Below are positions 25,641 through 63,391 of a stretch of DNA of 64,000 bases, piece after piece; position 1 is the stretch's first letter; the number at the start of each line of letters is the position of its first letter. The stretch lies in the IMG/VR virus record IMGVR_UViG_2778261638_000005, positions 1 through 64,000 of that record; one strand, written 5' to 3'. This stretch comes from a virus (taxonomy: Duplodnaviria > Heunggongvirae > Uroviricota > Caudoviricetes). Both the position numbers and the translations under genes were made by a program. Below the pieces are notes generated by a model, which made no database searches, had not been told where the DNA came from, and was given only the letters and a program-made list of their open reading frames with translations.

Positions 25641-25785
25641 TTATTGAGGCGTAAAAAAATGCGCTATCGCGCTGGTATTACTTGATAAATCCTGCCGCCT
25701 TTCCCCGCCTGTATTCCTCCATCAGCCACTGCGCCGGTGTTATTCCCCCCAGGGTGGCGGCGTTAGGCATGCACTAAAGCGCGCA

Positions 25786-25859
25786 AAATCATTTGATACC
25801 GTTTTGAATTTTTTTTGATACCACCCAAAACGGCACAACGAAAAATTATTTGATACTAA
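25786..25859. repeat. Right-end transposase-binding-type repeats (ATTTGATAC motif x3)
   Basis: AAATCATTTGATAC 25786..25799, TTTTGATACC about 25814..25823, AAATTATTTGATACT 25843..25857; inverted relative to the left-end copies. Confidence 0.6.
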
Positions 25860-26593
25860 TCGGGAGTGCTTTTAGGGTATGGCTGAACCCTGAATAGCTT
25901 AGTATTTAGCCGCTTCCTTGCTCGCTTGTTCAGGAACCTGATGTAGCGATACTGATTAAATTTGTGCACCACGGCACGCTCTTTATTAGCCCGTAAATAC
26001 ACGCCTCGTTGTCCACCGCGCTTAATTGCGTTCATCGTTATCTCGTGATACCACTCACCATCCAGCTCGTAGAACGTGCTTTCATGGCTGCCAATAAAAT
26101 CAAAATTCGACGCCTGATACACAACGCCTGCGCGTCCGCAGCGTTCGTCAGCAAAGGACTGAACCCACTCCACTGACGGATACAGTAATCTGATAACTTT
26201 CAGCGCGTAGCTGATGGCCCGTGATTCAGAGTTGCGGGGCATGTCGTCGTGTAGCCACATGCGATTCAACTCCATATAGCCCCGGTTATCCGTTTCAAGC
26301 ACGACACGACGACCTGAGTTGGGGTTAAGGGCATATCCCCACTGGAGAACGCCAACCAGATCGCGTCCGCTGAATACTCCCAGGTGGAGGTAAGAGTTAT
26401 TCACAAAACGGCGGGAATAGTGCTTTGTCTGAATAATTGTGCGGGCCAGCCAGCAGGATATGGTTTCAACGCGCAGCTCCTTTGAACCATAGCCAACAAT
26501 CTGGCCTTCATACTCAATAACGCACGGTTTCGTCAGAATGCGTGATTTTTTCTCTTTTCCCACAATGTTTCTCCGTGGGATGCTCGCAGGCAT
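25856..26593 (-). CDS. mom: Mom DNA-modification protein (start codon uncertain)
   Basis: Directly downstream of and overlapping com, last gene before the element end as in Mu; about 245-aa ORF. Confidence 0.7.
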
Positions 26594-26702
26594 TCAGCAT
26601 TATGATGTGACGTTTGCAACGCGGACACCTGATTTCAATGTGATCAAAGGAATCCGCCTTAAATAACAGTTTGTTGCAGTTTTTACAGCGAATTGATTTC
26701 AT
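26514..26702 (-). CDS. com: Com zinc-finger translational activator of mom (62 aa)
   Basis: [32 protein letters not shown]..., Cys4 zinc finger, 62 aa, overlaps mom start; matches my recollection of Mu Com. Confidence 0.85.
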
Positions 26703-26776
26703 CTCACCTCCTTTGCATCAATTCGCCACTATCTTAAAAAACATCATGGGTTGAGTGTGGTTATTGGGGCATAATC

Positions 26777-26811
26777 GATCTGTATTACCGATCGATTTAA
26801 TTGATTCGATC
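26777..26811. promoter_or_regulatory. Cluster of three GATC (Dam) sites upstream of com-mom (Mu Pmom-type regulatory region)
   Basis: GATC at 26777, 26790 and 26808 within 35 bp; in Mu the equivalent cluster governs methylation-sensitive repression of mom. Confidence 0.65.
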
Positions 26812-27378
26812 GTCGTTTTCTATATGCGCTCGTTTCGCGGGGTGTTTTTTATACAGAGTTGACAGGGCCACATCGTAGATCAATGCAACCTGCTTGCGGG
26901 GGATTCCTTGTGCTAATAAACGCCCGGCCTGCTCCCATTCCGCTTTGGTTAGTTTAGGTGGTCGCCCACCAATACGGCCTTTATTTCTGGCGGCAGCAAG
27001 TCCAGCCATCGTTCGCTCGATGATTAGTTCTCGTTCCATTTCAGCCAGGGCACCCATAACGTGGAAGAAAAAACGCCCCATTGGAGAAGATGTGTCTATG
27101 CTGTCGGTCAGACTGCGAAAATTAATCCCTCGCTCCCGTAGTTCCCCGACGAGAGAAATCAGATGTTTCATGCTTCGCCCGAGGCGATCCAGTTTCCAGA
27201 CAACCAGCGTGTCACCTTTTTGAAGGCGCTTTAAAGCGCGTTTTAATCCCGGTCGGTCTGTCTTTGTCCCGCTTAATTTATCTTCAAATATTTGTTCACA
27301 TCCTGCACAAACAAGAGCGTTTCGTTGCAGGTCTGTATTCTGGTCATTTGTTGATACCCTTACATAGCCAATCAGCAC
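26797..27378 (-). CDS. gin: Serine DNA invertase, Gin/Hin/Pin/Cin family (193 aa)
   Basis: N-terminus MLIGYVRVSTNDQNTDLQ with catalytic Ser, C-terminal HTH; adjacent to invertible fibre segment. Confidence 0.9.
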   Translation of the reverse strand: MLIGYVRVSTNDQNTDLQRNALVCAGCEQIFEDKLSGTKTDRPGLKRALKRLQKGDTLVVWKLDRLGRSMKHLISLVGELRERGINFRSLTDSIDTSSPMGRFFFHVMGALAEMERELIIERTMAGLAAARNKGRIGGRPPKLTKAEWEQAGRLLAQGIPRKQVALIYDVALSTLYKKHPAKRAHIENDDRIN

Positions 27379-27432
27379 TCTGGATCTCCCGTTTAAAAGC
27401 GCAAATCATGCCATGCAGGCCGGAAACAACCA

Positions 27433-27460: not shown

Positions 27461-28463
27461 GGTAAACAGGGCTGGTAACGCCGTTCAAAAGACAGGCGAT
27501 ACCTTATCCGGTGGGCTTACTTTTGAAAACGACTCAATCCTTGCCTGGATTCGAAATACTGACTGGGCAAAGATTGGATTTAAAAATGATGCCGACAGCG
27601 ACACAGATTCATACATGTGGTTTGAAACAGGCGACAACGGCAATGAATATTTCAAATGGAGAAGCAAACAAAGCACCACAACAAAAGACCTGATGAATCT
27701 TAAATGGGATGCTTTGTCTGTTCTTGTTAAAGCCCTTTTCAGCAGTGAAGTAAAAATATCGACAGTCAATGCACTGAGGATATTTAATTCATCTTTTGGT
27801 GCCATTTTTCGCCGTTCTGAAGAATGCCTGCATATCATCCCTACACGAGAGAATGAGGGGGAAAATGGTGATATAGGGCCACTACGTCCCTTTACGCTTA
27901 ATCTCAGAACTGGCCGCATAACTATGGGGCATGGTCTGGATGTTACAGGAGATATAACAACTAACGCCTGGGTGTATGCAAACAGGTTTGCTATTAATAG
28001 TGGCTCAACCTCATGGATTGATATGCGAAACCAGAATGTCATTTTTGGTAGAAACGCAGTATCAACAAGTTCTGCGCAGGCTTTGTTAAGACAAGACCAT
28101 GCAGAACGCAAATTTTTTGTCGGTGGACTTGGTAACTACCAGTTTGGTTTTTACATGATTAATAACTCAAGGACAGCCAATGGCACCGATGGTCAGGCGT
28201 ACATGGATAATAACGGTAACTGGCTTTGTGGCTCGCAAGTTATTCCTGGCAACTATGGCAATTTTGATTCCAGATATGTGAGAGATGTTCGCCTGGGTAC
28301 GCGAGTTGTTCAATTGATGGCGCGTGGTGGTCGTTATGAAAAAGCCGGACACGCAATTACCGGATTAAGAATCATTGGTGAAGTAGATGGCGATGATGAA
28401 GCCATCTTCAGGCCAATACAAAAATACATCAATGGCACATGGTATAACGTCGCACAGGTGTAA
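27441..28463 (+). CDS. Alternative tail-fibre C-terminal segment (Sv'-like), promoterless in the present orientation
   Basis: Frame is open back through the gix site (starts NLGLQETVN, the same junction peptide found in the expressed fibre); ends ...INGTWYNVAQV like the expressed fibre. Confidence 0.7.
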   Translation, partial: NLGLQETVNRAGNAVQKTGDTLSGGLTFENDSILAWIRNTDWAKIGFKNDADSDTDSYMWFETGDNGNEYFKWRSKQSTTTKDLMNLKWDALSVLVKALFSSEVKISTVNALRIFNSSFGAIFRRSEECLHIIPTRENEGENGDIGPLRPFTLNLRTGRITMGHGLDVTGDITTNAWVYANRFAINSGSTSWIDMRNQNVIFGRNAVSTSSAQALLRQDHAERKFFVGGLGNYQFGFYMINNSRTANGTDGQAYMDNNGNWLCGSQVIPGNYGNFDSRYVRDVRLGTRVVQLMARGGRYEKAGHAITGLRIIGEVDGDDEAIFRPIQKYINGTWYNVAQV

Positions 28464-28994
28464 ATGATGCAGCATTTAAAAAATATTAAGTCTGGAAATC
28501 CTAAAACGAAAGAACAATATCAGCTAACAAAGAATTTTGATGTTATCTGGTTATGGTCCGAAGACGATAAAAACTGGTATGAGGAAGTGAAAAACTTTCA
28601 GCCAGACACAATAAAGATTGTTTACGATGCAAATAATATTATTGTCGCCATCACTAAAGATGCCTCCACGCTTAACCCTGAAGGTTTTAGCGTCGTTGAG
28701 GTTCCTGATATTACAGCCAACCGCCGCGCTGATGATTCAGGAAAGTGGATGTTTAAGGATGGAGCTGTAGTTAAACGGATTTATACGGCAGACGAACAGC
28801 AACAACAGGCCGAATCACAAAAGGCCGCATTGCTTTCCGAAGCTGAATCAGTCATCCAGCCGCTGGAACGCGCTGTCAGGCTGAATATGGCAACAGACGA
28901 GGAACGCACACGACTGGAAGCATGGGAACGCTACAGTGTTCTGGTCAGCCGTGTGGATACGGCAAATCCTGAATGGCCACAAAAGCCTGAATAA
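28464..28994 (+). CDS. Tail-fibre assembly protein (U'-like), 176 aa
   Basis: Paralog of 29023..29556 (shared motifs [36 protein letters not shown]). Confidence 0.75.
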
Positions 28995-29022: not shown

Positions 29023-29556
29023 TCATTCAGGTTGTTCGGGAAATGTTACTGGCAGGCTGGAGGTGTCTGTAGATTCGACTTTCTGCGCATAGAGCATCCA
29101 CTCAGTTAATTTTTGTTTATTCTCGTCGGAAATGATGCCCAGCCGTAGCTGTGAGTCCCATAGCTGGGTTTTATCCCTGACAAGTTGCAACAGGCTTTGT
29201 TTTTCATTCTCTGCCTGCTGCCTTTGTTCCTCCTCGGTATAAGTTCGCTTTATCACTACGCCATCTTTGAACATCCATTTACCCGAAATATCAGCCCGGC
29301 GATTTGCTGTAATATCAGGAACCTCAACGACGCTTGCGCCTTCTGGATTAATTGCTGAAACATCCTTTTCAATACAAATAATAACGTCGTTGTGGTCATA
29401 GACCATTTTCAACGTATCAGGCTGAAAGTTCTTTTGTTCCTCATACCAGTTTTTCCCATCCTCTGTATAAAGCCATTTGATGTTAAATTGTTTCGTTAGC
29501 TGGTATTGCTCTTTTGTTTTAGGGTTGCCAGCAGTAATGTTTTTTAAGTGCATCAT
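29023..29556 (-). CDS. Tail-fibre assembly protein (U-like), 177 aa
   Basis: Follows the expressed tail-fibre gene; paralog of the + strand copy. Confidence 0.8.
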   Translation of the reverse strand: MMHLKNITAGNPKTKEQYQLTKQFNIKWLYTEDGKNWYEEQKNFQPDTLKMVYDHNDVIICIEKDVSAINPEGASVVEVPDITANRRADISGKWMFKDGVVIKRTYTEEEQRQQAENEKQSLLQLVRDKTQLWDSQLRLGIISDENKQKLTEWMLYAQKVESTDTSSLPVTFPEQPE

Positions 29557-29558
29557 CG

Positions 29559-31019
29559 TTAAATACTCCCCGCGTTATACCACGTCCCATTAATGCAATA
29601 CTGAATTGGCCTTGCCTGAGTTGTATCAATTAATTCATCACGGTTTCCGTTAACTGAACCTGTAACGACATAACCTGACCTGTCAGACCAGCCGGGACCA
29701 TTCCATGTCTGAACAGATGACAGACCGCCCAGGCGAATACCTGTAATAAACCTTGAGTTACATTCTGCCTGCGTATATGCACCAACATCCCCCGCAGAGG
29801 GTTTGCGGGTTGTGGTGTAAAACTCTGACCAGTTAGCTTCAAAGCCATAACCATCACGCGCTGAACGATAAAAGATACCGCCGTTCTTATAATTCACGCG
29901 GAACTGTACAGCAGGGCAACTCCCCGCATTCATATTGAAGTGGAGGATTAATGTCGATGCGCCACTGATATCTGCATCATAAACGCCGCTATTCCAGTTC
30001 CAGCCAACAGCTTTATCATTTGCAACCCTGCTTCCTGTTTGCCCTAAAGCAAATGCAGGCTGCTGGTTTTTCGTGTTGTAGTCTCTTCGCCAGCCAGGAG
30101 CATAAGCATCACCATGATTAATATAAGTGAATTGAGCGTTAGTAATTCCGCCACCGCTGGACGTGCTCGGGGTGGTTACACGGATGGTCATGGCTCCTTT
30201 ATTACCCATAACCTCAATAACGCAACCTGCAAGATGAATAGTTCCACAGCCAGTATCGGTAATAATTTTATTATTGCCGTATGACCATGAACATTTGCAC
30301 ATCCAGTATGGGTGATTGAATGCCCCTTGAGAATCCAGCCATTCAATCAATTGTGCCGTCGTCCAGTTTCCTGCACCTGTGCTAATAGCACTGTGAAAAG
30401 CGCGACATGCACCAATATTTTTTGTGAAAGTATCTTTTCCTGGAATATCTGCGCCGTTCTGGTTTTTCTGTAATGCGCCAGAAGCCTGATTTACCGTTTC
30501 CTGTAAACCGACGTTTTGGATAAACAGCGGCTTATTGGGAATATCTGCTCCGTTCCGGTCTTTTGCCAGACGGGCATTGGCATTATCCATCGCAATTTTC
30601 ACCGCTTTTGCGGTGGCTGCCAGCGTTTCACTGGGGCTGTCAGTGGCACTGGTTAGCTGAACGAGTCCTTTTTTGTTCAGGCTGGCATCATAGATATCCA
30701 GATTTTCACGTGCTGTACGCTGTGCTGATGCCCCGGCAGTTTTAATTTCACTGAGGTTATTTTTTATCAGCAGCGCGTTATTGCTCATAATGGCTTTAAT
30801 GGACAGTGCAAGCTGGTTTAATTTTGTTTTATCCGGTTGAATACCGGCTTCTTCCAGCGTGTTTAATAACTCCGCCTGCACAATATTAAACCAGTCCATG
30901 CCGGGCCATGTGATAACATTATTCCCGTCACCTTCTGAAAACCAGCGAACGATAGCACTACGCTGGGCGGATACGGGCGGCATGACGGTTACGCCGCTGT
31001 CGTTATCAATATAAAACAT
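29559..31019 (-). CDS. Tail fibre protein (S-like), 486 aa; constant N-terminus outside and variable C-terminus inside the invertible segment
   Basis: gix site lies in codons for GLQETVN at 30496..30523; repeated NGADIP(N/G)K motifs. Confidence 0.8.
   Translation of the reverse strand: MFYIDNDSGVTVMPPVSAQRSAIVRWFSEGDGNNVITWPGMDWFNIVQAELLNTLEEAGIQPDKTKLNQLALSIKAIMSNNALLIKNNLSEIKTAGASAQRTARENLDIYDASLNKKGLVQLTSATDSPSETLAATAKAVKIAMDNANARLAKDRNGADIPNKPLFIQNVGLQETVNQASGALQKNQNGADIPGKDTFTKNIGACRAFHSAISTGAGNWTTAQLIEWLDSQGAFNHPYWMCKCSWSYGNNKIITDTGCGTIHLAGCVIEVMGNKGAMTIRVTTPSTSSGGGITNAQFTYINHGDAYAPGWRRDYNTKNQQPAFALGQTGSRVANDKAVGWNWNSGVYDADISGASTLILHFNMNAGSCPAVQFRVNYKNGGIFYRSARDGYGFEANWSEFYTTTRKPSAGDVGAYTQAECNSRFITGIRLGGLSSVQTWNGPGWSDRSGYVVTGSVNGNRDELIDTTQARPIQYCINGTWYNAGSI
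30496..30523. repeat. gix-type recombination site (right inverted repeat) inside the tail-fibre gene
   Basis: GTTTCCTGTAAACCGACGTTTTGGATAA, inverted copy of 27433..27460. Confidence 0.8.
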
Positions 31020-31561
31020 TAGTTATCTCCGTCATGGTAAACAAATTTATAAATCTGATGTGCGGGTTTATATTTCTCCAGTAAACATTCCAGCGCACCC
31101 GATTCATAAACACGTAACGGCGTCAGAACATTATCCAGCACCGTTGCGTTGCGATAATTTTTAATACCGTAAATATTGACCTGCGTAACCCACTGGCCTT
31201 CTGTGGAATCCGTCAGCCTGACGGTAAAACCGTACTGTGCAGCCAGCCATTCATAAAAGCGCCGACTCAGATTGCCGGTCATACGCATTTTATTCGCGGC
31301 AGCCCGCTGGCGTTCGGACAAGGTGCCGTTTTCGCTGGTACAGTCCGGCAACCCCAGAAATGATTCCCACTCCCCCAGATACCAGCGGGATGTGGACGGG
31401 AAACGCTCCCGCAGCATTTGCCGCGCATCATCCGCCGCAGTGGCAATCACGTCGCTGATGGCCTGCGCCAGCGCAGATAATTTGCTGTCGGGGCTTTTAT
31501 TCCAGGCAAGCCCTGACGGCAGTAATTGCAGAAAGGCCGTCTGATAGGGTGTTACAGCCAT
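31019..31561 (-). CDS. Mu gp48-like tail protein (180 aa)
   Basis: Position between baseplate J and fibre; family resemblance to YmfQ/gp48 (recollection). Confidence 0.6.
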   Translation of the reverse strand: MAVTPYQTAFLQLLPSGLAWNKSPDSKLSALAQAISDVIATAADDARQMLRERFPSTSRWYLGEWESFLGLPDCTSENGTLSERQRAAANKMRMTGNLSRRFYEWLAAQYGFTVRLTDSTEGQWVTQVNIYGIKNYRNATVLDNVLTPLRVYESGALECLLEKYKPAHQIYKFVYHDGDN

Positions 31562-32634
31562 TCAATTGTCCCCGGTGTTAACAGTTCCGTATTCTCCGAA
31601 CGCTGGATCTCTGTCGGGAAACGCACTTCAAAATCATCCAGACCGGTAACACCTGCCACCGCACGGATAATACGGGAGGGGGCAAGTGCGCCGCCCGGCG
31701 TCACCTCATTAAAAAACATGGTATTAATGGCGTGGGTAATAGCCTGTTTCAGTTCGGCTGTCTTCGGTGATATATAAATCCGTGGATTTACCGGCTTTGC
31801 CTTTGGCGCAAATACAGTGACATTTACACCGTCAGGCTGTCCGACAATCAGACCGGTGATCGGGTCAGTATGACCGGCGATATAATCTGCCACGCGTTCC
31901 ACGTCTGCCGGTTGTGGAAAAATATTGCTCCGGTTATCCATAACAAACGTCACCCCGACTGTGCCACCGCCTTTCCATGTCGGAAAACACCAGGCACGGG
32001 TAACGCCGCTGACTTCACGTGCCCAGCGGACGTAATCAAACTGATTACCGCCGAACGGAGGATACTGGACACGATATTCCAGCCGTGACAGCAGCTCCGC
32101 TGCACTCTCAATATCAGCCCCACCGGAAAACCCTTTTACAGTGATGGCATCGGAAACAACACAGGCAACCGGGGTGATCAACGTTAAAAGGGTATTCTCA
32201 CCGGTATTTCCTGCTTCACCGGCAGCCAGTGCGGTAACGGTAATTTCCGTCGTTCCTGCACGGTCAATCACAATGGCATCAGCCAGGCTGTAAACCACAC
32301 CATCAGCACGCTGCCAGCGTGTACCGGCAGGAATGGTGGTCGCTGCCGATGTGGTGACAGTCAGCGGGCCGCTGGCGGCTGTCGCCTGTTTGCGGCGCAC
32401 GCCCCAGAACCGGCAGTGCTCCAGCAACTCATCTTCATCTGCTGTCGACGGGATAATCTGCCGTCCAACCCATGAAATATGCTCGTGACAACCGGCAGCA
32501 AGGCCCGCCTGAGCATAAGCAATGGCACTCAGCGTTTTTTCACGGGCCTGAGGCCAGCTACCCGGCAGGCGCTGTTCAATATTCTGTTCTGTACGGGCAA
32601 TCAGCGATGATAATGTCGGTGGTGAATAAGCCAT
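31552..32634 (-). CDS. Baseplate J-like protein (Mu gp47-like), 360 aa
   Basis: Size and position in Mu-type baseplate cluster. Confidence 0.7.
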   Translation of the reverse strand: MAYSPPTLSSLIARTEQNIEQRLPGSWPQAREKTLSAIAYAQAGLAAGCHEHISWVGRQIIPSTADEDELLEHCRFWGVRRKQATAASGPLTVTTSAATTIPAGTRWQRADGVVYSLADAIVIDRAGTTEITVTALAAGEAGNTGENTLLTLITPVACVVSDAITVKGFSGGADIESAAELLSRLEYRVQYPPFGGNQFDYVRWAREVSGVTRAWCFPTWKGGGTVGVTFVMDNRSNIFPQPADVERVADYIAGHTDPITGLIVGQPDGVNVTVFAPKAKPVNPRIYISPKTAELKQAITHAINTMFFNEVTPGGALAPSRIIRAVAGVTGLDDFEVRFPTEIQRSENTELLTPGTIEWL

Positions 32635-33072
32635 TTAAACCCCGTTAAATGCTGCTTTAAACTCATAAGGAATAACGGAACCATCCGGTAATGTCAGTGC
32701 AATGTAGAGGTATAACCAGCCCTGATGTAACTGTTCCGCTCTGATGTTAATCGCACTTACCCGGCCCGCTGTTTTCAGCCATTCCAGCGCCTCTTCGGCA
32801 TACCCTCTGGCGCGTTCCAGCGTATCCGGTGTGGCTTTTTCACGTGATAACAGCCATAACCGCGAACCGATGGGGCGGTCGCGGTAACTGTCACCCCACC
32901 ATCCACGGCGATCATCTGAACCATCCGGCAGCGTGTCAGAATCCAGCGCGCGCCGGTCTGTAAACAGGGAGATTGTCACATCGGTTGTCAGGCTGTCGTC
33001 GGTCAGCATATCAATGCCATCCTGTGCAATATCGCCGCGTCCGTTCGTCCAGATAATGGCTAAATCGGTCAT
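32635..33072 (-). CDS. Baseplate wedge protein (gp25/W-like; Mu gp46-like), 145 aa
   Basis: Size and position. Confidence 0.6.
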   Translation of the reverse strand: MTDLAIIWTNGRGDIAQDGIDMLTDDSLTTDVTISLFTDRRALDSDTLPDGSDDRRGWWGDSYRDRPIGSRLWLLSREKATPDTLERARGYAEEALEWLKTAGRVSAINIRAEQLHQGWLYLYIALTLPDGSVIPYEFKAAFNGV

Positions 33073-33662
33073 TGCATTGGCCCCGTGGTTCCGCCGCTGT
33101 CGCCACGGTGGATATGCTTATCCGTCGATTTGCCATTGATGATGGCATCCGGGGCAGTAATATTGCTGTCGAACTGGCTTTTACCTTTAACGCCCAGACC
33201 TTTCTGGATCTCAACGTCGCCGGTAAACGTGGTTCTGGGTGTGTCAACGGTCATACTTTCATCAGCGTAAACCTCAACCGTTTTACAGGTAATGATGCAG
33301 CGTCCGTCCTTTGTCAGCCTGATACGATGCCCCTCGTGGTGGTAAATGCCTGCATCACCCGGTTCAAGATTTGTCGGGCGGTAGCGGCGGTCTTCCACCA
33401 CAACGGCAATCCCCTGATCACGTTGTGCGCCTACACAGGCAATCAGCGCCTCTGCGCCCGGCAGGGGAACGCTGAAATGCCCGTAATTTTGCAGGCGCTC
33501 CACTTCATCAGATTCCTCATCATCCAGCAGGCCGACCTGCAGGTTCTGAACCTTTCGCCCGTCGTTAATCACGTTAACAACAGCGCGCGCAAGCATCAGG
33601 CGCACACGACGCATCAGCGGCGTCAGCAGGCGGTTCAGGGCGGAATCATTTACTCTTTCCAC
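33069..33662 (-). CDS. Baseplate assembly/spike protein V-like (Mu gp45-like), 197 aa
   Basis: Size and position. Confidence 0.6.
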   Translation of the reverse strand: MERVNDSALNRLLTPLMRRVRLMLARAVVNVINDGRKVQNLQVGLLDDEESDEVERLQNYGHFSVPLPGAEALIACVGAQRDQGIAVVVEDRRYRPTNLEPGDAGIYHHEGHRIRLTKDGRCIITCKTVEVYADESMTVDTPRTTFTGDVEIQKGLGVKGKSQFDSNITAPDAIINGKSTDKHIHRGDSGGTTGPMQ

Positions 33663-36269: not shown

Positions 36270-36273
36270 GGTT

Positions 36274-54430: not shown

Positions 54431-54503
54431 GATCGTACCTCCGGAAAGGGGGCGGTGCTGCAACACCGCCTGTACTATTGATAACACTGAAAATGGAGAC
54501 AAC

Positions 54504-54743: not shown

Positions 54744-54999
54744 TCACGTCTGATGGTTTAAGTCCCAGCCTGCGGCGAATAAATGCGTCGCGGGCTTTTT
54801 TGTTATCCAGTGAAACTTCATCTGCAATAATATTAATTTCATGCTGGATAATATTCACAGTAACACGAGCAGAAAGCCCTTCACGGATAGCAATATCAAT
54901 AATATCGCGCATACGCTCAAGCATTTTAGCTTTCACCAGTTCTTCATCCAGGTCTTTAGGCGTAAATTTAGTTTCATTATTCATATTATTCACCTTCAC
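54703..54999 (-). CDS. Hypothetical early protein (98 aa)
   Basis: ORF in Mu semi-essential early region. Confidence 0.4.
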   Translation of the reverse strand: MKVNNMNNETKFTPKDLDEELVKAKMLERMRDIIDIAIREGLSARVTVNIIQHEINIIADEVSLDNKKARDAFIRRRLGLKPSDVITPDRLVEALFQR

Positions 55000-55168
55000 A
55001 ATTCATGCACGCCGTGTCATCGCCCATATCGCAGTGGTTGCATTTCAGCCCGCCACAATGAGGGCACTCTTTCAGATATTCAGGGGCTTCATTACCGCAG
55101 GTCGGACATGCCTGTTTCACCGTGGTAAATTTCCCCAGCCACGAATACGATGTTTCATTGTTTTCCAT
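54986..55168 (-). CDS. Hypothetical zinc-ribbon protein (60 aa)
   Basis: CPTCG...CPHCG...CNHC...CMNC motifs. Confidence 0.4.
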   Translation of the reverse strand: MENNETSYSWLGKFTTVKQACPTCGNEAPEYLKECPHCGGLKCNHCDMGDDTACMNCEGE

Positions 55169-55706
55169 TGTTTACCCCCGCCTGTTCCAGTGCCATAACT
55201 GGTGCGTCAGAACAGTCAAGAATGAGATAGCGCAGTACATGGTCGGTGATATTCCATGCGTTTGAGCTGCAAATAAAACGCCCTGGCCGGATATCAATAT
55301 AAGCCATCACAAAACGGGGCATTCCCTGTTCGCACATCCTGTTATCCACTTCTGCAACGATGTGAACGGATTCACAGGTCAGCACGCCCGTTGCAAACTC
55401 TTTTGCCAGCGCGGGGATGGTATTACCTTCCACCCAGGGTAATGAGCGACGCCAGTTGCACCACACCGCATCATCAACAGCAGGCTGCTCAGTTGCGTTT
55501 CGTCTTACAGGCGGCGTCGGACGTGGGCGCGGAACGTCATAAAATCCGTTGCATTCGGTGAGAACACCGGCATCAACCGCATCACGCAGGAAATACACCA
55601 TTGACGAGGGCAGCATATTCATTTTTTCAGCCAGAACCCCGCAGGTCAGACGCCCGTAAGCCCGTAATAATGTGCTGACACCATTCAGAACTTTTGCATC
55701 AATCAC
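55155..55706 (-). CDS. Hypothetical early protein (183 aa)
   Basis: ORF, translationally coupled. Confidence 0.45.
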   Translation of the reverse strand: MIDAKVLNGVSTLLRAYGRLTCGVLAEKMNMLPSSMVYFLRDAVDAGVLTECNGFYDVPRPRPTPPVRRNATEQPAVDDAVWCNWRRSLPWVEGNTIPALAKEFATGVLTCESVHIVAEVDNRMCEQGMPRFVMAYIDIRPGRFICSSNAWNITDHVLRYLILDCSDAPVMALEQAGVNNGKQ

Positions 55707-55709
55707 CGG

Positions 55710-56264
55710 TTATTCCTCCGTCAGCGCCACAAATTCAGAATGTTTAATGCGCTGGCATTCGGCGGGAACCGGTCCCTTCACTTCGCCAGCCAGAAGGTAC
55801 ACCGCAAACAAAATGCTGAATCCGTCACGGCTGTGGTGCATTTTCCACACGGACCTGATGTCAAACAGGTCAACGTCGGTAGCCACGTTAAGTTCATTGC
55901 ACAGCCAGCGCGGAAAATCCGGGTTTTTTTCGAGCTGATTTTCACAGTCCCGGATGAGCTTCCCGTACTCACGGCCTGCCGGTATTGTCATATCCGGCAT
56001 TGCGCCCCATAACTGAATATCACCAATGAAAAGTGTCCTTGATTTAATCTCCCATCCTTCCGGTGGTAAGTAGCTAAACCAGACATGCGTAACCCTCTCA
56101 GGCCCTTTGTCACCAGACAAAGACACACCGATTGCTTTCACTGATTGCTGTAATGACTCAATAATCTCACCACGCTTAACAGAAACCTCTTTCAGCCAGC
56201 GAATCGTATAACCGTTAGCGGCTGTGTCACTCAGTTTAAAATAAGCACATGCTTTCATTTTCAT
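55710..56264 (-). CDS. Hypothetical early protein (184 aa)
   Basis: ORF downstream of gam. Confidence 0.45.
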   Translation of the reverse strand: MKMKACAYFKLSDTAANGYTIRWLKEVSVKRGEIIESLQQSVKAIGVSLSGDKGPERVTHVWFSYLPPEGWEIKSRTLFIGDIQLWGAMPDMTIPAGREYGKLIRDCENQLEKNPDFPRWLCNELNVATDVDLFDIRSVWKMHHSRDGFSILFAVYLLAGEVKGPVPAECQRIKHSEFVALTEE

Positions 56265-56355
56265 TCTCTCCGGTTCTGATTAAGGCGCGAGTAGTCCTCT
56301 GACGCATCGCGCCATAATTAAACGAATGTGAATTAATTAAATATTAATGGTGGTA

Positions 56356-56880
56356 TTAAATACCGGCTTCCTGTTCAAACGGAATAATGGAAAAATCTTC
56401 AATTCCCGATTTAACCGTAATTCCGGCAACACCTGCGACGGCTTTTGGTTCCAGTAAAATCGCCTCCTTGTTGATTTCCTGCTTCGTGCGAATAAAGCGT
56501 TGCAGGCCAAGACGCTCCAGCGTTTCCATCACTGCATCCATACCACGAATACTTACTGATGGTGGACGGACCCGCCACGATACATCACCGGTGACAAGAT
56601 TCGCCGTCTTCACTTTGCCGCCGTTCGTCAGTTCGTCGCGGTTCGCTTCACACCATCCCTGAACGCCTTTTGAAAGGGTTTCAATATCGGTTTTAATCGG
56701 TGCAATTCGGGCCGCAAATTTCTCCGTAATTTCCGCGATGGCATCATTCATTTCCGTTTCCAGACGTGATGCTTCGCGCTGTAAATCCCCGATGCGTTTA
56801 ATATCGGTAATCACCGCATCGCGGTTTTGTGGCACATAAGCCGCTGCGGCACTCTTGATACGTTTTGCTGGTTTAGCCAT
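56356..56880 (-). CDS. gam: Gam host-nuclease inhibitor (Mu Gam-like), 174 aa
   Basis: Size, coiled-coil N-half, position in Mu early region. Confidence 0.75.
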   Translation of the reverse strand: MAKPAKRIKSAAAAYVPQNRDAVITDIKRIGDLQREASRLETEMNDAIAEITEKFAARIAPIKTDIETLSKGVQGWCEANRDELTNGGKVKTANLVTGDVSWRVRPPSVSIRGMDAVMETLERLGLQRFIRTKQEINKEAILLEPKAVAGVAGITVKSGIEDFSIIPFEQEAGI

Positions 56881-56899
56881 AAATTAAAGCTCCTGTTAA

Positions 56900-57199
56900 T
56901 TAATATCCGCTGTATACAATGCTGGATACAGCTCGATTGCTTAATTCCATCTTTCGGGCAATGACATGAATATCCAGTCCTTCTTTATAAAGTTCACGAC
57001 ATAAATATTTGTCGTGTTCACTGATTCGGTATACACACAATGATATTCCGTGCCTTCTGGCATGTGCCCGGAGGGCGGTTGTGGCGACTTTCAGTTTTTC
57101 CGCCATTTCTTCAACGGTCATTTTCCCGACGTTGGCTTCGATAAATTCCCGGTCTTCGCGTGACCAGCGCTTACGATTATACTTCATGTCAGCCACCAT
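56900..57199 (-). CDS. Hypothetical HTH-like early protein (99 aa)
   Basis: Two helix-turn-helix-like segments. Confidence 0.4.
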   Translation of the reverse strand: MVADMKYNRKRWSREDREFIEANVGKMTVEEMAEKLKVATTALRAHARRHGISLCVYRISEHDKYLCRELYKEGLDIHVIARKMELSNRAVSSIVYSGY

Positions 57200-57619
57200 T
57201 CAGTACAGCAGAGGCTCGCGCAGTGATGCCGGAATATGCCGCAGCGATAACTGAACCGCTTTCAGGGCAAGCGAGGAATAACAGCAGCGCGCCCAGCCTT
57301 TTGCCATTAACCGGTAATCGCGCCAGATACGCTGCCACATTTCACGGGCTTCAGGGTCTGATGCGCAGATGTATTCCCGGTCCATGACGTACTCCCATAA
57401 ATCCACGTTGAACGCACCGCCAAATGCAATGGCGCGGGATATGCTTTCGCCGCAATAACGCGCACAGATGCTGTAATGGTCGAAAGCAATCAGGTAAGTC
57501 TTTTCACCACAATCATCAACTTTTCGGGCGCAAATAAACTCGCGTAATTCACCACCGTTGTTATTGCGTTCCTGAATTCGGATTAATGCCTGAATTTCAT
57601 TTCGGATTTTGACGTTCAT
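57200..57619 (-). CDS. Hypothetical early protein (139 aa), Cys-rich
   Basis: ORF between B and gam (kil-region position). Confidence 0.4.
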   Translation of the reverse strand: MNVKIRNEIQALIRIQERNNNGGELREFICARKVDDCGEKTYLIAFDHYSICARYCGESISRAIAFGGAFNVDLWEYVMDREYICASDPEAREMWQRIWRDYRLMAKGWARCCYSSLALKAVQLSLRHIPASLREPLLY

Positions 57620-57639
57620 TGTCAGCGTTCCTTTGCGAA

Positions 57640-57909
57640 TTAATGTTTAACCACATTCACCGGACGTGGTACTAAATCACATTCAGCTTCCATACCCACT
57701 TTCTTCATAGTGGTCAGCATCTCATCTTTGGCCTTTTTAATAATTTCAGGAGCCATAGTCAGGACTATATTTGCCAGTAAATCATGAGGCCCGGTATTTT
57801 CCGTTGGCGAGATATCTGCAAGACATGCTTTTGCATCCAGAACTTCTCTGCGCCCATTGCAACTGTCACTACTTTCCAGCCATGTAAACTCAAAGATAAC
57901 CTTTGCCAT
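57640..57909 (-). CDS. Hypothetical early protein (89 aa)
   Basis: ORF. Confidence 0.35.
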   Translation of the reverse strand: MAKVIFEFTWLESSDSCNGRREVLDAKACLADISPTENTGPHDLLANIVLTMAPEIIKKAKDEMLTTMKKVGMEAECDLVPRPVNVVKH

Positions 57910-57929
57910 TTTTCTTCTCCTTATTGATT

Positions 57930-58175
57930 CTAAATAACTGCGCTGGCTTTTACCTTCGCGCCTTTTACCTGCTTAAAGAAAACTGCGCTGCACCACGGAC
58001 AACATGTCAGGGAATCCCGAATTTCCTTTTCGGGTGAGCATTGCGTCATAATCTGTTCACCGCATCCTGGGCATTTATATGTCGTCAGCGGCACCCCGTG
58101 GCACTGACAGTGTTTAACCCATTCAATATATTTTTCAGCTTTAATACACATCGTTATCTCCAGATAATCTGGCAA
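57930..58175 (-). CDS. Hypothetical Cys-rich early protein (81 aa)
   Basis: ORF with CPGCG and CCPWC motifs. Confidence 0.35.
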
Positions 58176-58381
58176 CCATTAAGACGGGCCGTCCATACAG
58201 AACGGGCCACCCCGGACTTATGCTCCATAATTCTGACCGCGTTTTTTACCAGTTCCACCGGTGGGTAAGTGATTTCAAGAATCGGACGCGCCACGCCGAG
58301 ATATGATTCATTTACATGACTCCCGCGCGCCTGTAACCAGTTCTGCGCATCCGTTGCCATTTTTATATTTCGTGACATCAT
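58154..58381 (-). CDS. Hypothetical early protein (75 aa)
   Basis: ORF directly downstream of B. Confidence 0.35.
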
Positions 58382-58392: not shown

Positions 58393-59325
58393 TTACCACC
58401 AGTTCAGTAATTTCGGGTTGCTGTAAACCTCTTTAAAAGCTGCTTTAATGTAGCCTTTGGATAGAGGAACGCCTTTCCCGCTGGCAGCCAGCCACGCCTG
58501 ATTCAGCGTATGAGTTAATACACGTAATGCACCTGGTTTTTCCGCGATGCTCTGCATGAGTGATAATTCATCTTCGCCCTCAATGCCCCAGGCTTTCGCA
58601 ATTGCCACCACGTCAGCCTTTTTGGCTTTACGTAGTTGCTTTGTTCTGGCGAAACGACTGAACAAACGTGCAAGGTCATCTGTTCCCCGGTGTGTGGCTT
58701 TGGCTAACTGGTGTGGGTTGCCAATCAATACCATCCCGACGCCGGTTGCATCCTGAATGGCGCGTAACTGCTCCAGCCCGTCCATGCTCAGGTGGTCAGC
58801 TTCATCCACAATAACCAGACCGCGTGTGCCATTCAGTTTTTTGCGAATGGCGCGGGTCAATGCGCCTTTATTCCTTTGCGGATTATCAATTCCCAGCGCG
58901 TCTGCCAGCTCCAGCAGACACTCAGTCACTGTTGAGTGTGCAGGGGAAAGGGTCACCATCCAGGTATTAGATACACGGTTACTGTATTCACGGGCCGCAA
59001 CGGTTTTACCAACACCCGGCACACCAACCAGAACGCTGATACAGCCCATAACACGCACGGTCTGAAACAGCTCGCGCAAATCACGGAGGGTTTGTGTTTC
59101 CACAAGTTGTGGTGCGCCAGGTAACTCCAGACTTTTTTGCCAGCTCTGATGCCACATCAGTAATTTGTCATGCATCCCTTCGGTATCACCTTTGTAACGG
59201 CCTTTGCGAAGTTCAGAAAGAGTGGCCTCCGACACCCCCGCTTCTTTAGCAATAGCGCTTTGTGTTTTTACGCCGTCAGTAATAAGTGTGTTAATCGTGT
59301 TGAAAACATCATTAATATCGGTCAT
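58393..59325 (-). CDS. Transposition ATPase B (MuB-like AAA+), 310 aa
   Basis: N-terminal HTH, Walker A GVPGVGKT, Walker B VIVDEADHL; follows A. Confidence 0.85.
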   Translation of the reverse strand: MTDINDVFNTINTLITDGVKTQSAIAKEAGVSEATLSELRKGRYKGDTEGMHDKLLMWHQSWQKSLELPGAPQLVETQTLRDLRELFQTVRVMGCISVLVGVPGVGKTVAAREYSNRVSNTWMVTLSPAHSTVTECLLELADALGIDNPQRNKGALTRAIRKKLNGTRGLVIVDEADHLSMDGLEQLRAIQDATGVGMVLIGNPHQLAKATHRGTDDLARLFSRFARTKQLRKAKKADVVAIAKAWGIEGEDELSLMQSIAEKPGALRVLTHTLNQAWLAASGKGVPLSKGYIKAAFKEVYSNPKLLNWW

Positions 59326-59398: not shown

Positions 59399-61486
59399 TC
59401 AGGCCAGCGGATCATCCTGTTCCTGTATGGCTACAAGCTTCTGCAAACCCAGCCTGAAATCGCGTTCATAATCTTCGTCGTAATCCTCCTCATAATCCTG
59501 TTGCTGGATGGTTACCGTATTGCCAACCGGGCGATAAACATTATCCAGCCAGGGTTCAGCCTGTTTGTGCTCCAGTATCTGAATGCCTTCATCCTCAGCA
59601 TCACGAATTTTTTCCTCAGCACGTTTGCGCATTCCTTTAATACGCTGCTGTTGTTTGTGATATTCAGCACTGACAGCAAAGGCTGCGCGTTTATTGCCGT
59701 TCCATATCGCCTCACAGATAAAGCTGCCGTCCTTGCGACGTACCGTAATTCGCTCGGCGTCATGAATGTCATAACTGATAAGTACTTTGCGACCGTGTTC
59801 GTCACGCAACTCCGGCGCGTAGTAAATATTGTTCAGCCACTGAATTTCGCACCGTCTTACCGGGCGTTCCACCATCGGGCGGAACATGTCGCGCAGCTCA
59901 AGATCACTCAGCCACTCAATTTCGGTGCCTTCTTCTGCCAGGCGTTTTTTTCTGAACTCTGCCGGGCTGTAATGCCGCCCGTTCGGTTTCATTGGCAGCT
60001 CAGAATGCGGGCGGTTGTTGTACCATTCCACGCCTTCACGAATAGCCTCAATAAGCTCCGCCCACGATGGTAGCTCGCGCATTGCAGCTTTCTGGCGGTC
60101 GTTCAGAGGCTTGTCCTGTTGCATGGCGTTAAACGCTGAACGCAGATCACGGTTAAGTACACGCAACGATTCCCGGTCAGCACCCTTGCCAAAATAGGTG
60201 CGATACCTCCTGGCTATACGCATCGGCAGTGTCCGGTTCAGGCGTTCAATAATGCCGCGCCCCTGTGGATTACCGGCAATACCGGTAGGGTGTTTAATCC
60301 CCAGGCGGGGCAGAATACCCACGATCTCTTTGTCCAGTATGTCAGCCGTTTCACCAGAACCATTATCCGAGTAATACAGAAACGGTTTTCCGTGGTTGCG
60401 AATGCCGTGCTGTATCGCACCGGCAACGGCGAACACGTTCTCGGCAAGGTCAAGACTCCAGCCAACAACAAACCGGGTTCCACCGTCGATCACAAATGTA
60501 ACTTCCGGTGAGAATGGACGCCCGTGGATCGGATGTGCACATTTCAGCTTCATACCGTGACCGTCACCAATCCAGACATAATTCACCGGCATAGCTGTCC
60601 AGTCGCGGCGGGTGAATCCTTCAAGCTGACGGTATTCACTGCCGGTAACGCGCCCTTTTTGTTTCACCACTTCCGGCAGTTTTTTCATGGCATACCGGAC
60701 AACATCATAGGAAGGCATCACCTCCAGCATGTATGGTTCGTCCGCATGGCGACGCTGCCAATCAGCGACAAAATCCTCATAGGCTTCAGACATAGGCCTG
60801 CCGTTAGCCTGACGATACTGCGCCAGAAATTCAGGCAGCCAGCTAATTTCTTCCGGTTTTATTTCGTCGCGCTTTCCTGGTGCCAGTAACAGCAGTCGTT
60901 CTGCGGCATTCTGTGCTTTGTTAAACGCAGCTATCCAACGTTTGAGCGTAATTGCGCTCAGAGTTCGCTCTTTTCCTTTACGGGCATTAGCAGTAATGAC
61001 CAAAGATTCCAGGCGTTCTTCCAGGTTACCCTGCGCTAACCGCGACACAATAAAACGTATAGCGCTGGCACAACTGAATCCCGGCTCCTGGCTAATTCGT
61101 AGAACTTCACAGACAAGAGCAATGCGCGCTTCTGCAACTTTACGTTGATTTTCCGTAAGCGCATTCAGACGCTCTTCTACCAATTGTGGCGAACCGCGAT
61201 ATGCCTCAACAGGCTGTACAACATTTTGTTTGCGTTCACGCTTTACAGGAGGCTGGGTAGTTATCTCCCGCGGGGCGCTTGCCATCAGTTGAGCTACATG
61301 TCGCTCACGTAACGCCCGTTGTGTAACCGGAGGGAGGCAGTCGATGCTGTATTCAATGGTTTTTGAACCCGCACGTTTGCGCCTGAAATGCTCAGATGAG
61401 GCCAGTTTCCTTATGGAATACCGCACCCCTTGCGCAGTTCCCGGCATACCTGGTAACCCTACAAGCTCATTAACTGATACAAACAT
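59399..61486 (-). CDS. DDE transposase A (MuA-like), 695 aa
   Basis: Size, position after ner, N-terminal end-binding-type domain, acidic C-terminus. Confidence 0.85.
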   Translation of the reverse strand: MFVSVNELVGLPGMPGTAQGVRYSIRKLASSEHFRRKRAGSKTIEYSIDCLPPVTQRALRERHVAQLMASAPREITTQPPVKRERKQNVVQPVEAYRGSPQLVEERLNALTENQRKVAEARIALVCEVLRISQEPGFSCASAIRFIVSRLAQGNLEERLESLVITANARKGKERTLSAITLKRWIAAFNKAQNAAERLLLLAPGKRDEIKPEEISWLPEFLAQYRQANGRPMSEAYEDFVADWQRRHADEPYMLEVMPSYDVVRYAMKKLPEVVKQKGRVTGSEYRQLEGFTRRDWTAMPVNYVWIGDGHGMKLKCAHPIHGRPFSPEVTFVIDGGTRFVVGWSLDLAENVFAVAGAIQHGIRNHGKPFLYYSDNGSGETADILDKEIVGILPRLGIKHPTGIAGNPQGRGIIERLNRTLPMRIARRYRTYFGKGADRESLRVLNRDLRSAFNAMQQDKPLNDRQKAAMRELPSWAELIEAIREGVEWYNNRPHSELPMKPNGRHYSPAEFRKKRLAEEGTEIEWLSDLELRDMFRPMVERPVRRCEIQWLNNIYYAPELRDEHGRKVLISYDIHDAERITVRRKDGSFICEAIWNGNKRAAFAVSAEYHKQQQRIKGMRKRAEEKIRDAEDEGIQILEHKQAEPWLDNVYRPVGNTVTIQQQDYEEDYDEDYERDFRLGLQKLVAIQEQDDPLA

Positions 61487-61488
61487 TT

Positions 61489-61725
61489 TTATGCCACCTT
61501 ACGAGCGTAACGGCTGGGCCAGATCTCCTCCGGCGCAACACCAATAGCATCAGCAATAATGCGCTCATATTTTGGGCATTTGCGGTACAGGGCATTCTTT
61601 AAAGAATCCTGGTTTAAACCGGCTTCAATGGACAGAGAGCGTAAAGTAAAACCTTTTACATGCACCGCCGCGACAACATGCGCGGGGTGCCAGTCCTGTT
61701 TAACAACTTCATTTATAGACATCAT
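61489..61725 (-). CDS. ner: Ner-like DNA-binding regulator (78 aa from MMSINEV)
   Basis: C-terminal ...EEIWPSRY matches the Ner signature; AAGGA RBS before ATG 61725. Confidence 0.8.
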   Translation of the reverse strand: MMSINEVVKQDWHPAHVVAAVHVKGFTLRSLSIEAGLNQDSLKNALYRKCPKYERIIADAIGVAPEEIWPSRYARKVA

Positions 61726-61865
61726 TCGTTTATCCTTAAAAGTTATCTGCGCGGATAACACCGCCGGATAATCTCTACAGATAAATATTTGATCACTACA
61801 AAAGAAAAGTAAAGGTGTTTTATCTCTTTCTTTGGTTGTTTTTATCTACAAAAGGATATTTCTTT
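61726..61865. promoter_or_regulatory. Divergent early/repressor control region with repeated TTATC/GATAA half-sites (putative operators)
   Basis: TTATCTGCGCGGATAA palindrome at 61733..61748 and further GATAA/TTATC repeats between ner and c. Confidence 0.5.
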
Positions 61866-62450
61866 ATGAATCATATGGTTAACAGAAAAGAAAGAAGCAC
61901 TGAAAAAGAAAGTGATTTTTCTTTTCCTGTGTTTCAAAAAGAAAGCATTAAAGAGCGCCTAGCCATGCTAATGCGCGGGCGCTCCAAGACTGCCGTGGCG
62001 AAGGCGTGGGGGCTACCGTTCTCAACACTTAACAACTACTTTGAGAAAGATGCGACACCATCTCTACAAGTAGCTAGTCAGATTGCTTTTGCAGAAGGGG
62101 TGAGCATTGATTGGCTTGTTTTTGGCAAGGAGGATATAGAACCAATATCACCTAAAATAGATGAAAACGTCCAATTGCCCCTAGATATAACGCTACAGCG
62201 CCTTCTTGCTATACTAAGTGCTTTAGAAGCATCAGAGGCAGAGCGATTATCAAAAATCCTCGCGCTAAATGGAGCTAAGTACTTGTCACGGTTACTTGAA
62301 CCAGAGAATCAAGAACTAATCCAACTTGAAGGACGAAAACGTGCAGCAGCTCTACTTTTAGATCATTTATCGGATGAAAGAGTTAGAGAGATTTTGGCAG
62401 AAATTGAAAGCGATAAACTCTCAAGTAGTTTAGAATCGAAGGCGGGCTAA
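61866..62450 (+). CDS. Repressor c (Mu Rep-like), 194 aa from MNHMVNRK
   Basis: Divergent from ner at the element left end; N-terminal HTH-like segment; AAAGGA RBS. Confidence 0.6.
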   Translation: MNHMVNRKERSTEKESDFSFPVFQKESIKERLAMLMRGRSKTAVAKAWGLPFSTLNNYFEKDATPSLQVASQIAFAEGVSIDWLVFGKEDIEPISPKIDENVQLPLDITLQRLLAILSALEASEAERLSKILALNGAKYLSRLLEPENQELIQLEGRKRAAALLLDHLSDERVREILAEIESDKLSSSLESKAG

Positions 62451-62507
62451 TTCCAATAGCCCGCGGCTGGTTTTTTAACCTGTTTAAAACGTTAAAATCG
62501 CAGAAAT

Positions 62508-62672
62508 CAGTAGTATCAAATATTTTTTCGTTTTTAGCTTTCTTTGCGACAGTAGTATCAAATCACATGTTGTGCGCATAACACTGTTTTACGTCATAAC
62601 TGTTTGTTTTATCCCATCAAATCCCGTTTGATCCACTTTCCTCCCGGATTTTTCAGCAGTATCAAATGATTT
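62508..62672. repeat. Left-end transposase-binding-type repeats (CAGTAGTATCAAAT x3)
   Basis: Copies at 62508..62521, 62550..62563 and 62654..62667 (third is CAGCAGTATCAAAT); reverse complement of the motif at the right end. Confidence 0.6.
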
Positions 62673-63391
62673 ACCTCTCTATAGCACCCGAAACTTCGCC
62701 CTGGTGGATGGTAAACGTCTCTCCCTGTTTCCGGAGGCGTACTCATGGGTTCTGGCTTTGCCTGTATGCTGATCACCGGATCGGGTATCTGCTGTCCGGA
62801 AGCCACCTTTTTCGCCCAATCATCGAGCAGCCTGCGCGCGTGTTTCTCAACCTCAATCTCGCTAAGCTGGCGCTGATACATTGCACGGCGGGTATCACAT
62901 ACGACCCAGTACATAACCGGATGCCGCCACGGGAATCTTTCGGGACCACCAGGATATAAACTTTTTTCCTTGCTGTACCGGTGAAACTCCGTCATCACAT
63001 CGTCAATGGTGACGCCAAGAACCATCTTGCTGTCTTTGCACCACTTGATGAATTGCCCTGGCGACGGCCAGAACGGAGAATCACTGGCGCGGGCGTGGCG
63101 CATACCAGCAGAAACCTGTTCACGGGTTCGGATCCCCCCTTCAGCAAACGCAGCAATCCACTGCTGTTTTGCAGCAACTTCCTGCTCTGGCGTCTTCAGG
63201 TTGGTTACCACTGCCGCCGGAAACAGTTGTTTCAACTGTTTGAAAAGGGCATCAACAAGCCTCTCTGCTGACATGTTCACTACGTTGTCATTGTTGGTGT
63301 ACTGATGCTCATAACCTGACATGCGAGAAAGGGCCTCTCCGTCACGGTTTTGTATTGCGGTAAAAACGTTGTTCACAAGAAATCCTCCCAT
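62609..63391 (-). CDS. Lambda P-like replication protein (helicase loader); 3'-terminal about 25 codons derive from the Mu-like end
   Basis: VSAGMRHARASDSPFWPSPGQFIKWCKD aligns with lambda P VNAGMRVARRQNRPFLPSPGQFVAWCRE (recollection); reading frame runs across the inferred insertion junction. Confidence 0.7.
   Translation of the reverse strand: MGGFLVNNVFTAIQNRDGEALSRMSGYEHQYTNNDNVVNMSAERLVDALFKQLKQLFPAAVVTNLKTPEQEVAAKQQWIAAFAEGGIRTREQVSAGMRHARASDSPFWPSPGQFIKWCKDSKMVLGVTIDDVMTEFHRYSKEKSLYPGGPERFPWRHPVMYWVVCDTRRAMYQRQLSEIEVEKHARRLLDDWAKKVASGQQIPDPVISIQAKPEPMSTPPETGRDVYHPPGRSFGCYREVNHLILLKNPGGKWIKRDLMG

Follow-up and report, generated by a model that had tools for sequence, protein, structure and literature searches.

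A Mu-like transposable prophage with TA termini inserted in the replication gene P of a phiV10-like prophage

The stretch of DNA analyzed here, of 64,000 nucleotides (positions 1 to 64,000 of IMG/VR virus record IMGVR_UViG_2778261638_000005; hereafter the window), contains two phage genomes, one nested within the other, and raises the question of how the inner genome arrived in the outer one and what this arrival meant for both phages. The inner genome is a Mu-like element of 36,909 bp, whereas the outer genome, which occupies positions 1 to 25774 and 62684 to 64000, is that of a phiV10/epsilon15-like podovirus (Uetakevirus) with a lambdoid O/P-type replication module. The outer prophage shares approximately 97% nucleotide identity with phages of the latter type, is colinear with phage vB_EcoP_PAS61 (PAS61), and carries all its genes, in both parts, on the minus strand. 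Its best matches were the O157 typing phages 9 and 10, PAS61, and phiv142-3, and phiV10 was also matched; over region 1000 to 25769, the identity to typing phages 9 and 10, PAS61, and phiV10 was approximately 97%, at a coverage of 79 to 88%, and for the set with phiv142-3 in place of phiV10 the coverage of the outer part was 83 to 88%. We are highly confident that a phiV10-like prophage was already resident when a Mu-type phage transposed into its gene P, an event that would have left the Mu-like phage intact and probably active and the outer phage probably grounded. The coordinates of the individual features are provided in Table 1.

The ends of the Mu-like element were set by comparing six independent insertions in Escherichia coli, namely, those of strains 1290, S6, WS1933D, RM8082, 12A, and FDAARGOS_1059. 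Further evidence was provided by the end-to-end junction in the record of phage vB_YpM_5, which represents packaged DNA. In every case compared, the conserved sequence starts with TAAAGCGCGC (position 25775, the mom end) and stops with ATA (position 62683, the c end), and every copy of the element type that was examined has TA...TA termini. A reading of the window made from the sequence only had placed the ends at 25770 and 62686, which the independent insertions correct by 5 and 3 bp, respectively. With the TG...CA ends that these earlier positions imply, the terminal repeats are 2 nucleotides out of register and no duplication is seen (AGGCA versus CCCGA). With the ends at 25775 and 62683, the element is bracketed by two copies of the tetranucleotide GCAC. 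The uninterrupted site is present in PAS61 (GGCATGCACCCGAAAC), and both flanks also match E. coli WP3-S18-ESBL-09 (NZ_AP022036) with 99.8 to 100% identity, overlapping by exactly 4 bp. The presence of GCAC on both sides, together with this overlap at the empty site, is the signature of genuine transposition. The flanks are contiguous in PAS61 and in NZ_AP022036, and the uninterrupted P gene was recovered from this comparison, which the sequence-only reading had proposed.

Both ends of the element contain three inward-facing copies of the repeat TTTGATAC; there are nine matches to this repeat in the window, and six of them are located within the two element ends. In addition, the motif AAATCATTTGATAC fills positions 12 to 25 at both termini, and the outermost repeat occupies equivalent positions at either end. 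We presume that the repeats at the mom end correspond to transposase-binding sites R1 to R3 and those at the c end to sites L1 to L3. An arrangement of three repeats per end resembles the R1-R3 and L1-L3 layout of Mu, and the spacing at the c end, with one terminal site and two sites more than 100 bp inside, resembles Mu attL. The elements of strains TD225-C4, E300082, and FDAARGOS_943 yielded no end pairs; their mom ends were absent from the positions at which a 36.9-kb element would place them.

The length of the target duplication sets this element apart from Mu. It was 4 bp in all five intact insertions of the element type, with the sequences GCAC in the window, TCAC in strain 1290, TTAA in S6, GGCT in WS1933D, and TTCG in RM8082, and the insertion sites were unrelated (P, ydcO, the ydcV/patD region, glpT, and an epimerase-family gene adjoining ybjT). 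A 5-bp duplication with one mismatch was considered and rejected, since the "mismatch" was the element's own terminal A or T in each of the five insertions. As a control, the canonical Mu prophage carried by E. coli W was analyzed in the same way, which returned TG...CA ends and a 5-bp duplication (GCCGC). The element shares neither property with Mu proper, as it has TA/TA in place of TG/CA termini and duplicates 4 bp where Mu duplicates 5 bp. For a related Mu-like phage inside a Shiga toxin 1a (Stx1a) prophage, GenBank record LC727895 annotates a 4-bp "duplication due to insertion" (AGAG). In the literature searched, a 4-bp duplication in Mu-like phages is not described, and the article on SfMu gives no duplication length. 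The combination of a 4-bp stagger and TA termini in this A/B lineage is undescribed in that literature and on record only as a GenBank feature annotation. In two of the strains compared, 12A and FDAARGOS_1059, the genes next to either end of a related Mu-like element are unrelated; the distance between the ends is approximately 400 kb in 12A. This arrangement suggests a Mu-mediated rearrangement or recombination between two copies.

To which extent the inner genome is that of Mu can be seen from a tblastn search of the window with all 54 annotated Mu proteins. Full-length matches, mostly with 93 to 100% protein identity, were obtained from kil to mom, and no Mu-homologous open reading frame (ORF) was truncated. 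The proteins matched comprise Kil, Gam, GemA, Mor, C, the lysis, terminase, portal, head, sheath, tube, tape measure, and baseplate proteins, S/U/U'/S', Gin, Com, and Mom, and in megablast comparisons the late region was 95 to 98% identical in nucleotide sequence to SfMu, Mu, and D108. The element thus has the late-gene set and gene order of Mu, gin with its invertible G segment, and the com/mom pair. The earlier claim of a full Mu gene set between a P-like gene and the remainder of a second prophage is borne out by both searches. As judged from the orientation of the tblastn matches and from the inverted repeats, the G segment is in the orientation opposite to that of the Mu reference. The same segment is 97.2% identical to the C-segment of phage P7, and its fiber proteins are only 66 to 88% identical to Mu S and S'.

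The homology to Mu, D108, and SfMu detected by megablast ends at approximately position 58386, between kil and B, and the block that follows (c-ner-A-B, approximately 58387 to 62683) had no megablast match to these three phages. Transposase A shares 22% identity with MuA over a full-length BLASTP alignment (E = 9e-14), and the identities of B and Ner to their Mu counterparts are 44% and 46%, respectively. The repressor is unlike Mu c, which has its DNA-binding fold in common with the N terminus of A and for which tblastn retrieved no genuine match; it belongs to the CI/XRE type. The closest phage relatives of A were found in vB_YpM_5 (97% over residues 1 to 660) and Pseudomonas phage VW-6B (49%), followed at a greater distance by Klebsiella phage Kp4852-3 (42%) and D3112-like phages (31%). 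This block nevertheless has the properties of a Mu-like transposable phage: (i) A is a DDE transposase with the C-terminal domain of Mu transposases and an N-terminal DNA-binding domain of Mu type, (ii) a MuB-type AAA+ protein is encoded directly downstream of A, (iii) copies of the element occupy unrelated insertion sites with a short duplication, and (iv) inverted repeat arrays are present at both ends. The suspicion that the element is a mosaic, raised initially from the divergence of its early proteins, proved well founded, given that A (22%), B (44%), and a repressor without similarity to c contrast with Gin (99.5%) and Com (100%). The element is a hybrid that combines late, middle, and semiessential genes of Mu, a P7-like fiber segment, and an Sp18-/vB_YpM_5-like c-ner-A-B module.

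Within this module, the C-terminal approximately 35 residues of A (59399 to 59503) covary with B. Phage vB_YpM_5 combines the last 28 residues of MuA with a Mu-type B, whereas the window combines a different, acidic A tail with an Sp18-like B. The C-terminal domain of MuA contacts MuB. Recombination breakpoints thus appear to keep the interacting partners, A tail and B, together. With moderate confidence, we propose that c-ner-A-B represents a distinct enterobacterial Mu-type transposition system, characterized by TA termini and a 4-bp stagger, which would recombine freely with Mu late genes, but only where the C-terminal tail of A stays with its cognate B.

The closest relatives of the element are vB_YpM_5, the prophages of E. 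coli S6 and 1290, and Sp18-like phages. Mu, D108, and SfMu (Muvirus) have its gene order, its gin-associated invertible fiber segment, and its com and mom genes, as well as a set of three transposase-site repeats at either end; they differ from it in the early proteins and termini as detailed above. Phages vB_YpM_5 and vB_YpM_6 (MT374853 and MT374854) have the same left-end type, repressor, ner, A over residues 1 to 660, and termini, and the rest of their genomes is 94 to 98% identical to the element wherever aligned; vB_YpM_5 differs in its MuA-type A tail, its Mu-type B, and a fiber segment of approximately 85% identity. Phages with the left-end type of the element have been isolated and propagated, and vB_YpM_5 forms plaques (PMC10434027). 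In E. coli S6 and 1290, the prophages inserted between ydcV and patD and in ydcO, respectively, have the same ends, a 4-bp duplication, and an early module that is 99.9% identical, and they differ in their insertion sites, which are ordinary chromosomal genes. Such identity of the early module at different loci is indicative of recent mobility. The S6 prophage (2421571 to 2457666) is devoid of gin and of the invertible segment and has instead a single 2.5-kb fiber gene annotated as "pyocin knob domain-containing protein," which shows further modular exchange at the fiber end. Finally, Sp18-like Mu-like phages in Stx prophages of CC119 Shiga toxin-producing E. coli (STEC) (LC727895 and LC727881) resemble the arrangement in the window by being nested in a prophage of lambdoid type and by a B protein with 70% identity. 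The LC727895 element has the end motif AATCATTTGATAC in the same register, along with its annotated 4-bp duplication. These nested phages differ from the window in their late genes and outer phage, and the left terminus in LC727895 is TG and not TA.

The consequences for the outer prophage follow from the position of the insertion. The sequence-only reading had located it at the 3' end of P, which is confirmed by comparison with P of PAS61. The native protein has 261 amino acids, and the chimera keeps residues 1 to 231; the last 30 native residues (MPNAATLGGITPAQWLMEEYRRGKAAGFIK) are replaced by 24 residues from the element end, and their codons are now separated at positions 25681 to 25770. 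The P frame hence runs for 24 codons and a stop into the element, in agreement with the approximately 25 codons that had been estimated. The exact chimeric protein of 255 amino acids, with a GTG start, is on record in GCA_002542025.1, and no record was found for a 260-amino-acid version with an ATG start. In lambda P, the C-terminal lasso (domain IV, with the helix of residues 211 to 227) packs against the DH-LH elements of DnaB; it is a principal DnaB contact and probably binds before the remainder of the loader (PMC12661323). Placed by position only, the lost 30 residues would be the equivalent of this lasso, and the chimera would then lack an intact C-terminal DnaB-binding lasso. Inactivation of P is therefore plausible, and we consider it rather likely. 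Two further points do not depend on P. The composite has a size of approximately 76 kb, compared with 39 to 40 kb for phages of the outer type as judged from record lengths, and is probably too large for the capsid of the outer phage. Mu-type elements rarely excise precisely. Since P loses its C-terminal 30 residues, the genome measures approximately 76 kb, and precise excision is rare, the outer prophage has probably lost the ability to form viable particles and would in this sense be grounded.

Several points weigh against parts of this account. The probable activity of the one phage and inactivity of the other are deduced from their sequences, and integration may have followed either infection or replicative transposition. 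A second assembly that contains the insertion, a Logan assembly of SRR3988035, covers the c-end junction only, and its contig may stem from reads of the same isolate, so that it is not fully independent. With respect to P, the Pfam family Phage_lambda_P (PF06992; E = 1.6e-56) is kept whole in the chimera, from model positions 2 to 162 of 162. HMMER aligned the outer P to lambda P (PDB entries 6BBM and 8V9T) over residues 1 to 204 only (E = 1e-31), and consequently gave no homology of the lost 30 residues to the lasso; a search of PDB with the C-terminal 57 residues of P matched only unrelated designed repeat proteins. If the insertion is real and the outer P is still functional, size would be the only defect of the outer phage, if it is defective in any way. 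The complete Pfam domain and the untouched region of alignment with lambda P fit this possibility, as does the native tail, which, in a protein of 261 residues versus 233 in lambda, is longer than that of lambda P, is not alignable, and may be dispensable. We nonetheless regard a functional P as unlikely, because the lasso helix at the extreme C terminus makes a principal DnaB contact in lambda P (PMC12661323), the residues lost form the equivalent extreme C terminus, and the 24 residues that replace them are a fortuitous translation of the transposon end.

Far less probable is that the junctions are artefacts, i.e., that two separate prophages were misjoined in a draft assembly, an explanation to which we give almost no credit. 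The source is indeed a draft contig (NMKE01000004.1 of GCA_002542025.1, to which the window is identical over the 6.4 kb compared), and the junction was present in none of 5,426 complete E. coli genomes. However, the breakpoints coincide exactly with the termini seen in the other insertions, and four base pairs of the empty site are duplicated around the element. The flanks also complete each other to a single gene, and the sequence of the Logan contig is identical across the c-end junction. An artefact had been named at the outset as one of two findings that would overturn the nesting, and the occurrence of the junction in the NCBI assembly and in the separate Logan assembly, together with the GCAC duplication, argues against it; the other was contiguity of both blocks in one established phage, and no single phage record carries both. 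It is also improbable, although less so, that the Mu-like element is a fixed remnant that is no longer mobile. Such a remnant would be compatible with an element known from its sequence and with termini that are TA and not the canonical TG/CA. It is at odds with the full length of all Mu-homologous ORFs, with intact A, B, c, and ner genes, with the plaque formation (PMC10434027) of vB_YpM_5, a phage that shares the ends of the element and whose A is 97% identical over residues 1 to 660, and with the nearly identical early modules at different loci in S6 and 1290. The Mu-like phage thus appears to be intact and is probably still active.

Transposition of a Mu-type phage into P would have proceeded as follows. 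The phage would enter by infection or by a replicative hop within the cell and integrate by DDE transposition into gene P of the resident phiV10-like prophage. Both 3' ends of the element, which terminate in TA-3', would be joined to the target at GCAC by transposase A and protein B, with a stagger of 4 bp, and gap repair would generate the 4-bp duplication. We infer these joining and repair steps from the anatomy of the junctions and from what is known of Mu.

The orientation of the insertion may connect the two phages. The Mu-like element lies codirectionally downstream of the outer O-P operon, and a terminator scan of positions 61300 to 62900 retrieved only plus-strand hairpins, located after the repressor gene, and the minus strand had none from the truncated P to ner (62600 to 61725). 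Because the element is codirectional and no terminator-like hairpin intervenes, read-through from the outer early promoter into ner-A-B is possible. If so, and this is more speculative, induction of the outer prophage might drive transcription that is antisense to c and sense to ner-A-B, so that the Mu-like phage would be induced together with the phage that hosts it.

The nesting of a Mu-like phage in a prophage is an already published phenomenon, of which the window is a new instance. Of 10 Mu-like phages in CC119 STEC, 6 were inside mobile genetic elements, and Mu-like phages are present in several Stx phages (PMC10132054). Composite records of Stx and Mu-like phages of approximately 93 kb are present in GenBank. 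As a nested prophage, the finding matters little, since the insertion of Mu-type phages is nearly random and prophages are documented among their targets. It provides a clear-cut natural case in which one phage "grounds" another: the outer prophage, with its apparently serotype-specific tailspike, has probably lost both helicase-loader function and a packageable size. Of further relevance is that a virion genome otherwise identical to that of Mu is driven here by a transposition module whose transposase shares only 22% identity with MuA, and that its termini and stagger differ from those of Mu. Mu and this module thus form a natural pair to investigate the determinants of end recognition and stagger length in Mu-type transpososomes, and the same pair is useful to define which part of A must coevolve with B.

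Table 1. Features of the window, with positions, strand, and the evidence on which each is based
Feature	Positions	Strand	Evidence or remarks
Mu-like transposable prophage	25775..62683	-	Mu homology; ends from independent insertions and vB_YpM_5 packaged-DNA junction
Target-site duplication, copy 1 (GCAC)	25771..25774	.	Read directly
Target-site duplication, copy 2 (GCAC)	62684..62687	.	Read directly
Right (mom) end, terminus TAAAGCGCGC	25775..25856	+	Three inward-facing TTTGATAC repeats, offsets 18-25, 40-47, and 75-82
Left (c) end, terminus ...CTCTCTATA	62513..62683	-	Three TTTGATAC repeats, offsets 18-25, 122-129, and 164-171
Chimeric P ORF, 255 amino acids from GTG start	62609..63376	-	Pfam Phage_lambda_P; exact protein in GCA_002542025.1
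mom, DNA modification gene	25856..26593	-	99.6% protein identity to Mu Mom
com	26514..26702	-	100% protein identity to Mu Com
gin, invertase	26797..27378	-	99.5% protein identity to Mu Gin
Invertible G segment	27433..30523	.	Inverted repeats 27433-27490 and 30466-30523
Sv/U	27615..28994	+	Within G segment
U'	29023..29556	-	Within G segment
Expressed S fiber gene	29559..31019	-	Sv' part inside G segment, constant 5' part beyond the repeat
Late genes (baseplate, tube, terminase, TerS included)	31019..52000	-	Full-length tblastn matches, 95-100% to Mu, none truncated
Tape measure	36274..38346	-	tblastn
Sheath	39301..40788	-	tblastn
Head T	42422..43339	-	tblastn
Head I	43336..44421	-	tblastn
Portal (Mu-like)	46385..47923	-	tblastn
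TerL (Mu-like)	47923..49770	-	tblastn
Lysis genes	51482..52000	-	tblastn
Middle and semiessential early genes	52092..58381	-	97-100% to Mu
C	52092..52514	-	tblastn
mor	53493..53882	-	tblastn
gemA	53882..54430	-	tblastn
gam	56356..56880	-	tblastn; Pfam Gam, E = 4e-42
kil	58154..58381	-	tblastn
B, AAA+ target-DNA activator, non-Mu type	58393..59325	-	Phage-MuB_C (PF09077), E = 5e-24, and AAA domains; 44% to MuB
A, DDE transposase, 695 amino acids, non-Mu type	59399..61486	-	Mu-transpos_C (PF09299), E = 1.8e-18; HTH_Tnp_Mu_1 (PF02316), E = 1.3e-6
ner-like early regulator	61489..61725	-	Pfam HTH_35, E = 4e-25; 46% to Mu Ner
Repressor, 194 amino acids, CI/XRE-type helix-turn-helix	61866..62450	+	Pfam Phage_CI_repr and HTH_3
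Terminator-like hairpin after repressor gene	62442-62474	+	Terminator scan
Late and "nin-region" part of outer prophage (virion genes included)	1..25774	-	Nucleotide identity, Pfam, colinearity with PAS61
Tailspike	1..2250	-	Outer prophage, 749-amino-acid ORF
tRNA-Arg, anticodon TCT	19310..19386	+	tRNA scan; also the sole find of Rfam
TerL	20031..21506	-	Pfam
TerS	21503..22177	-	Pfam
NinX	22549..22971	-	Pfam
Ea22	23866..24537	-	Pfam
DUF1064 protein, gene adjoining insertion	25216..25560	-	Pfam
O-like initiator or DnaT-domain replication gene	63373..64000	-	Pfam DnaT, E = 7e-16; runs past window end; full gene 271 amino acids

The remaining observations concern the outer prophage. The gene adjoining the insertion (25216 to 25560), previously read as nin-type, encodes a DUF1064 protein according to Pfam, and the NinX homolog is located at 22549 to 22971. 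The tailspike ORF has a low GC content (0.39 to 0.41), and the PAS61 tailspike has no nucleotide match to the window before approximately position 1773; by its sequence, this gene looks like a swapped, serotype-specific receptor-binding module. The tRNA-Arg gene is located between the regions encoding portal and terminase, and its orientation is opposite to that of the genes around it; an Rfam scan retrieved nothing besides this tRNA. A tRNA-Arg is likewise annotated where O157 typing phages 9 and 10 match the window. Relative to window positions 17906 to 18443, positions 16421 to 17486 of PAS61, within its portal gene, show an apparent tandem duplication of approximately 537 bp, and the portal protein is annotated with 735 amino acids, compared with a 559-amino-acid ORF in the window, a difference that may be an assembly or annotation artefact of the PAS61 record.

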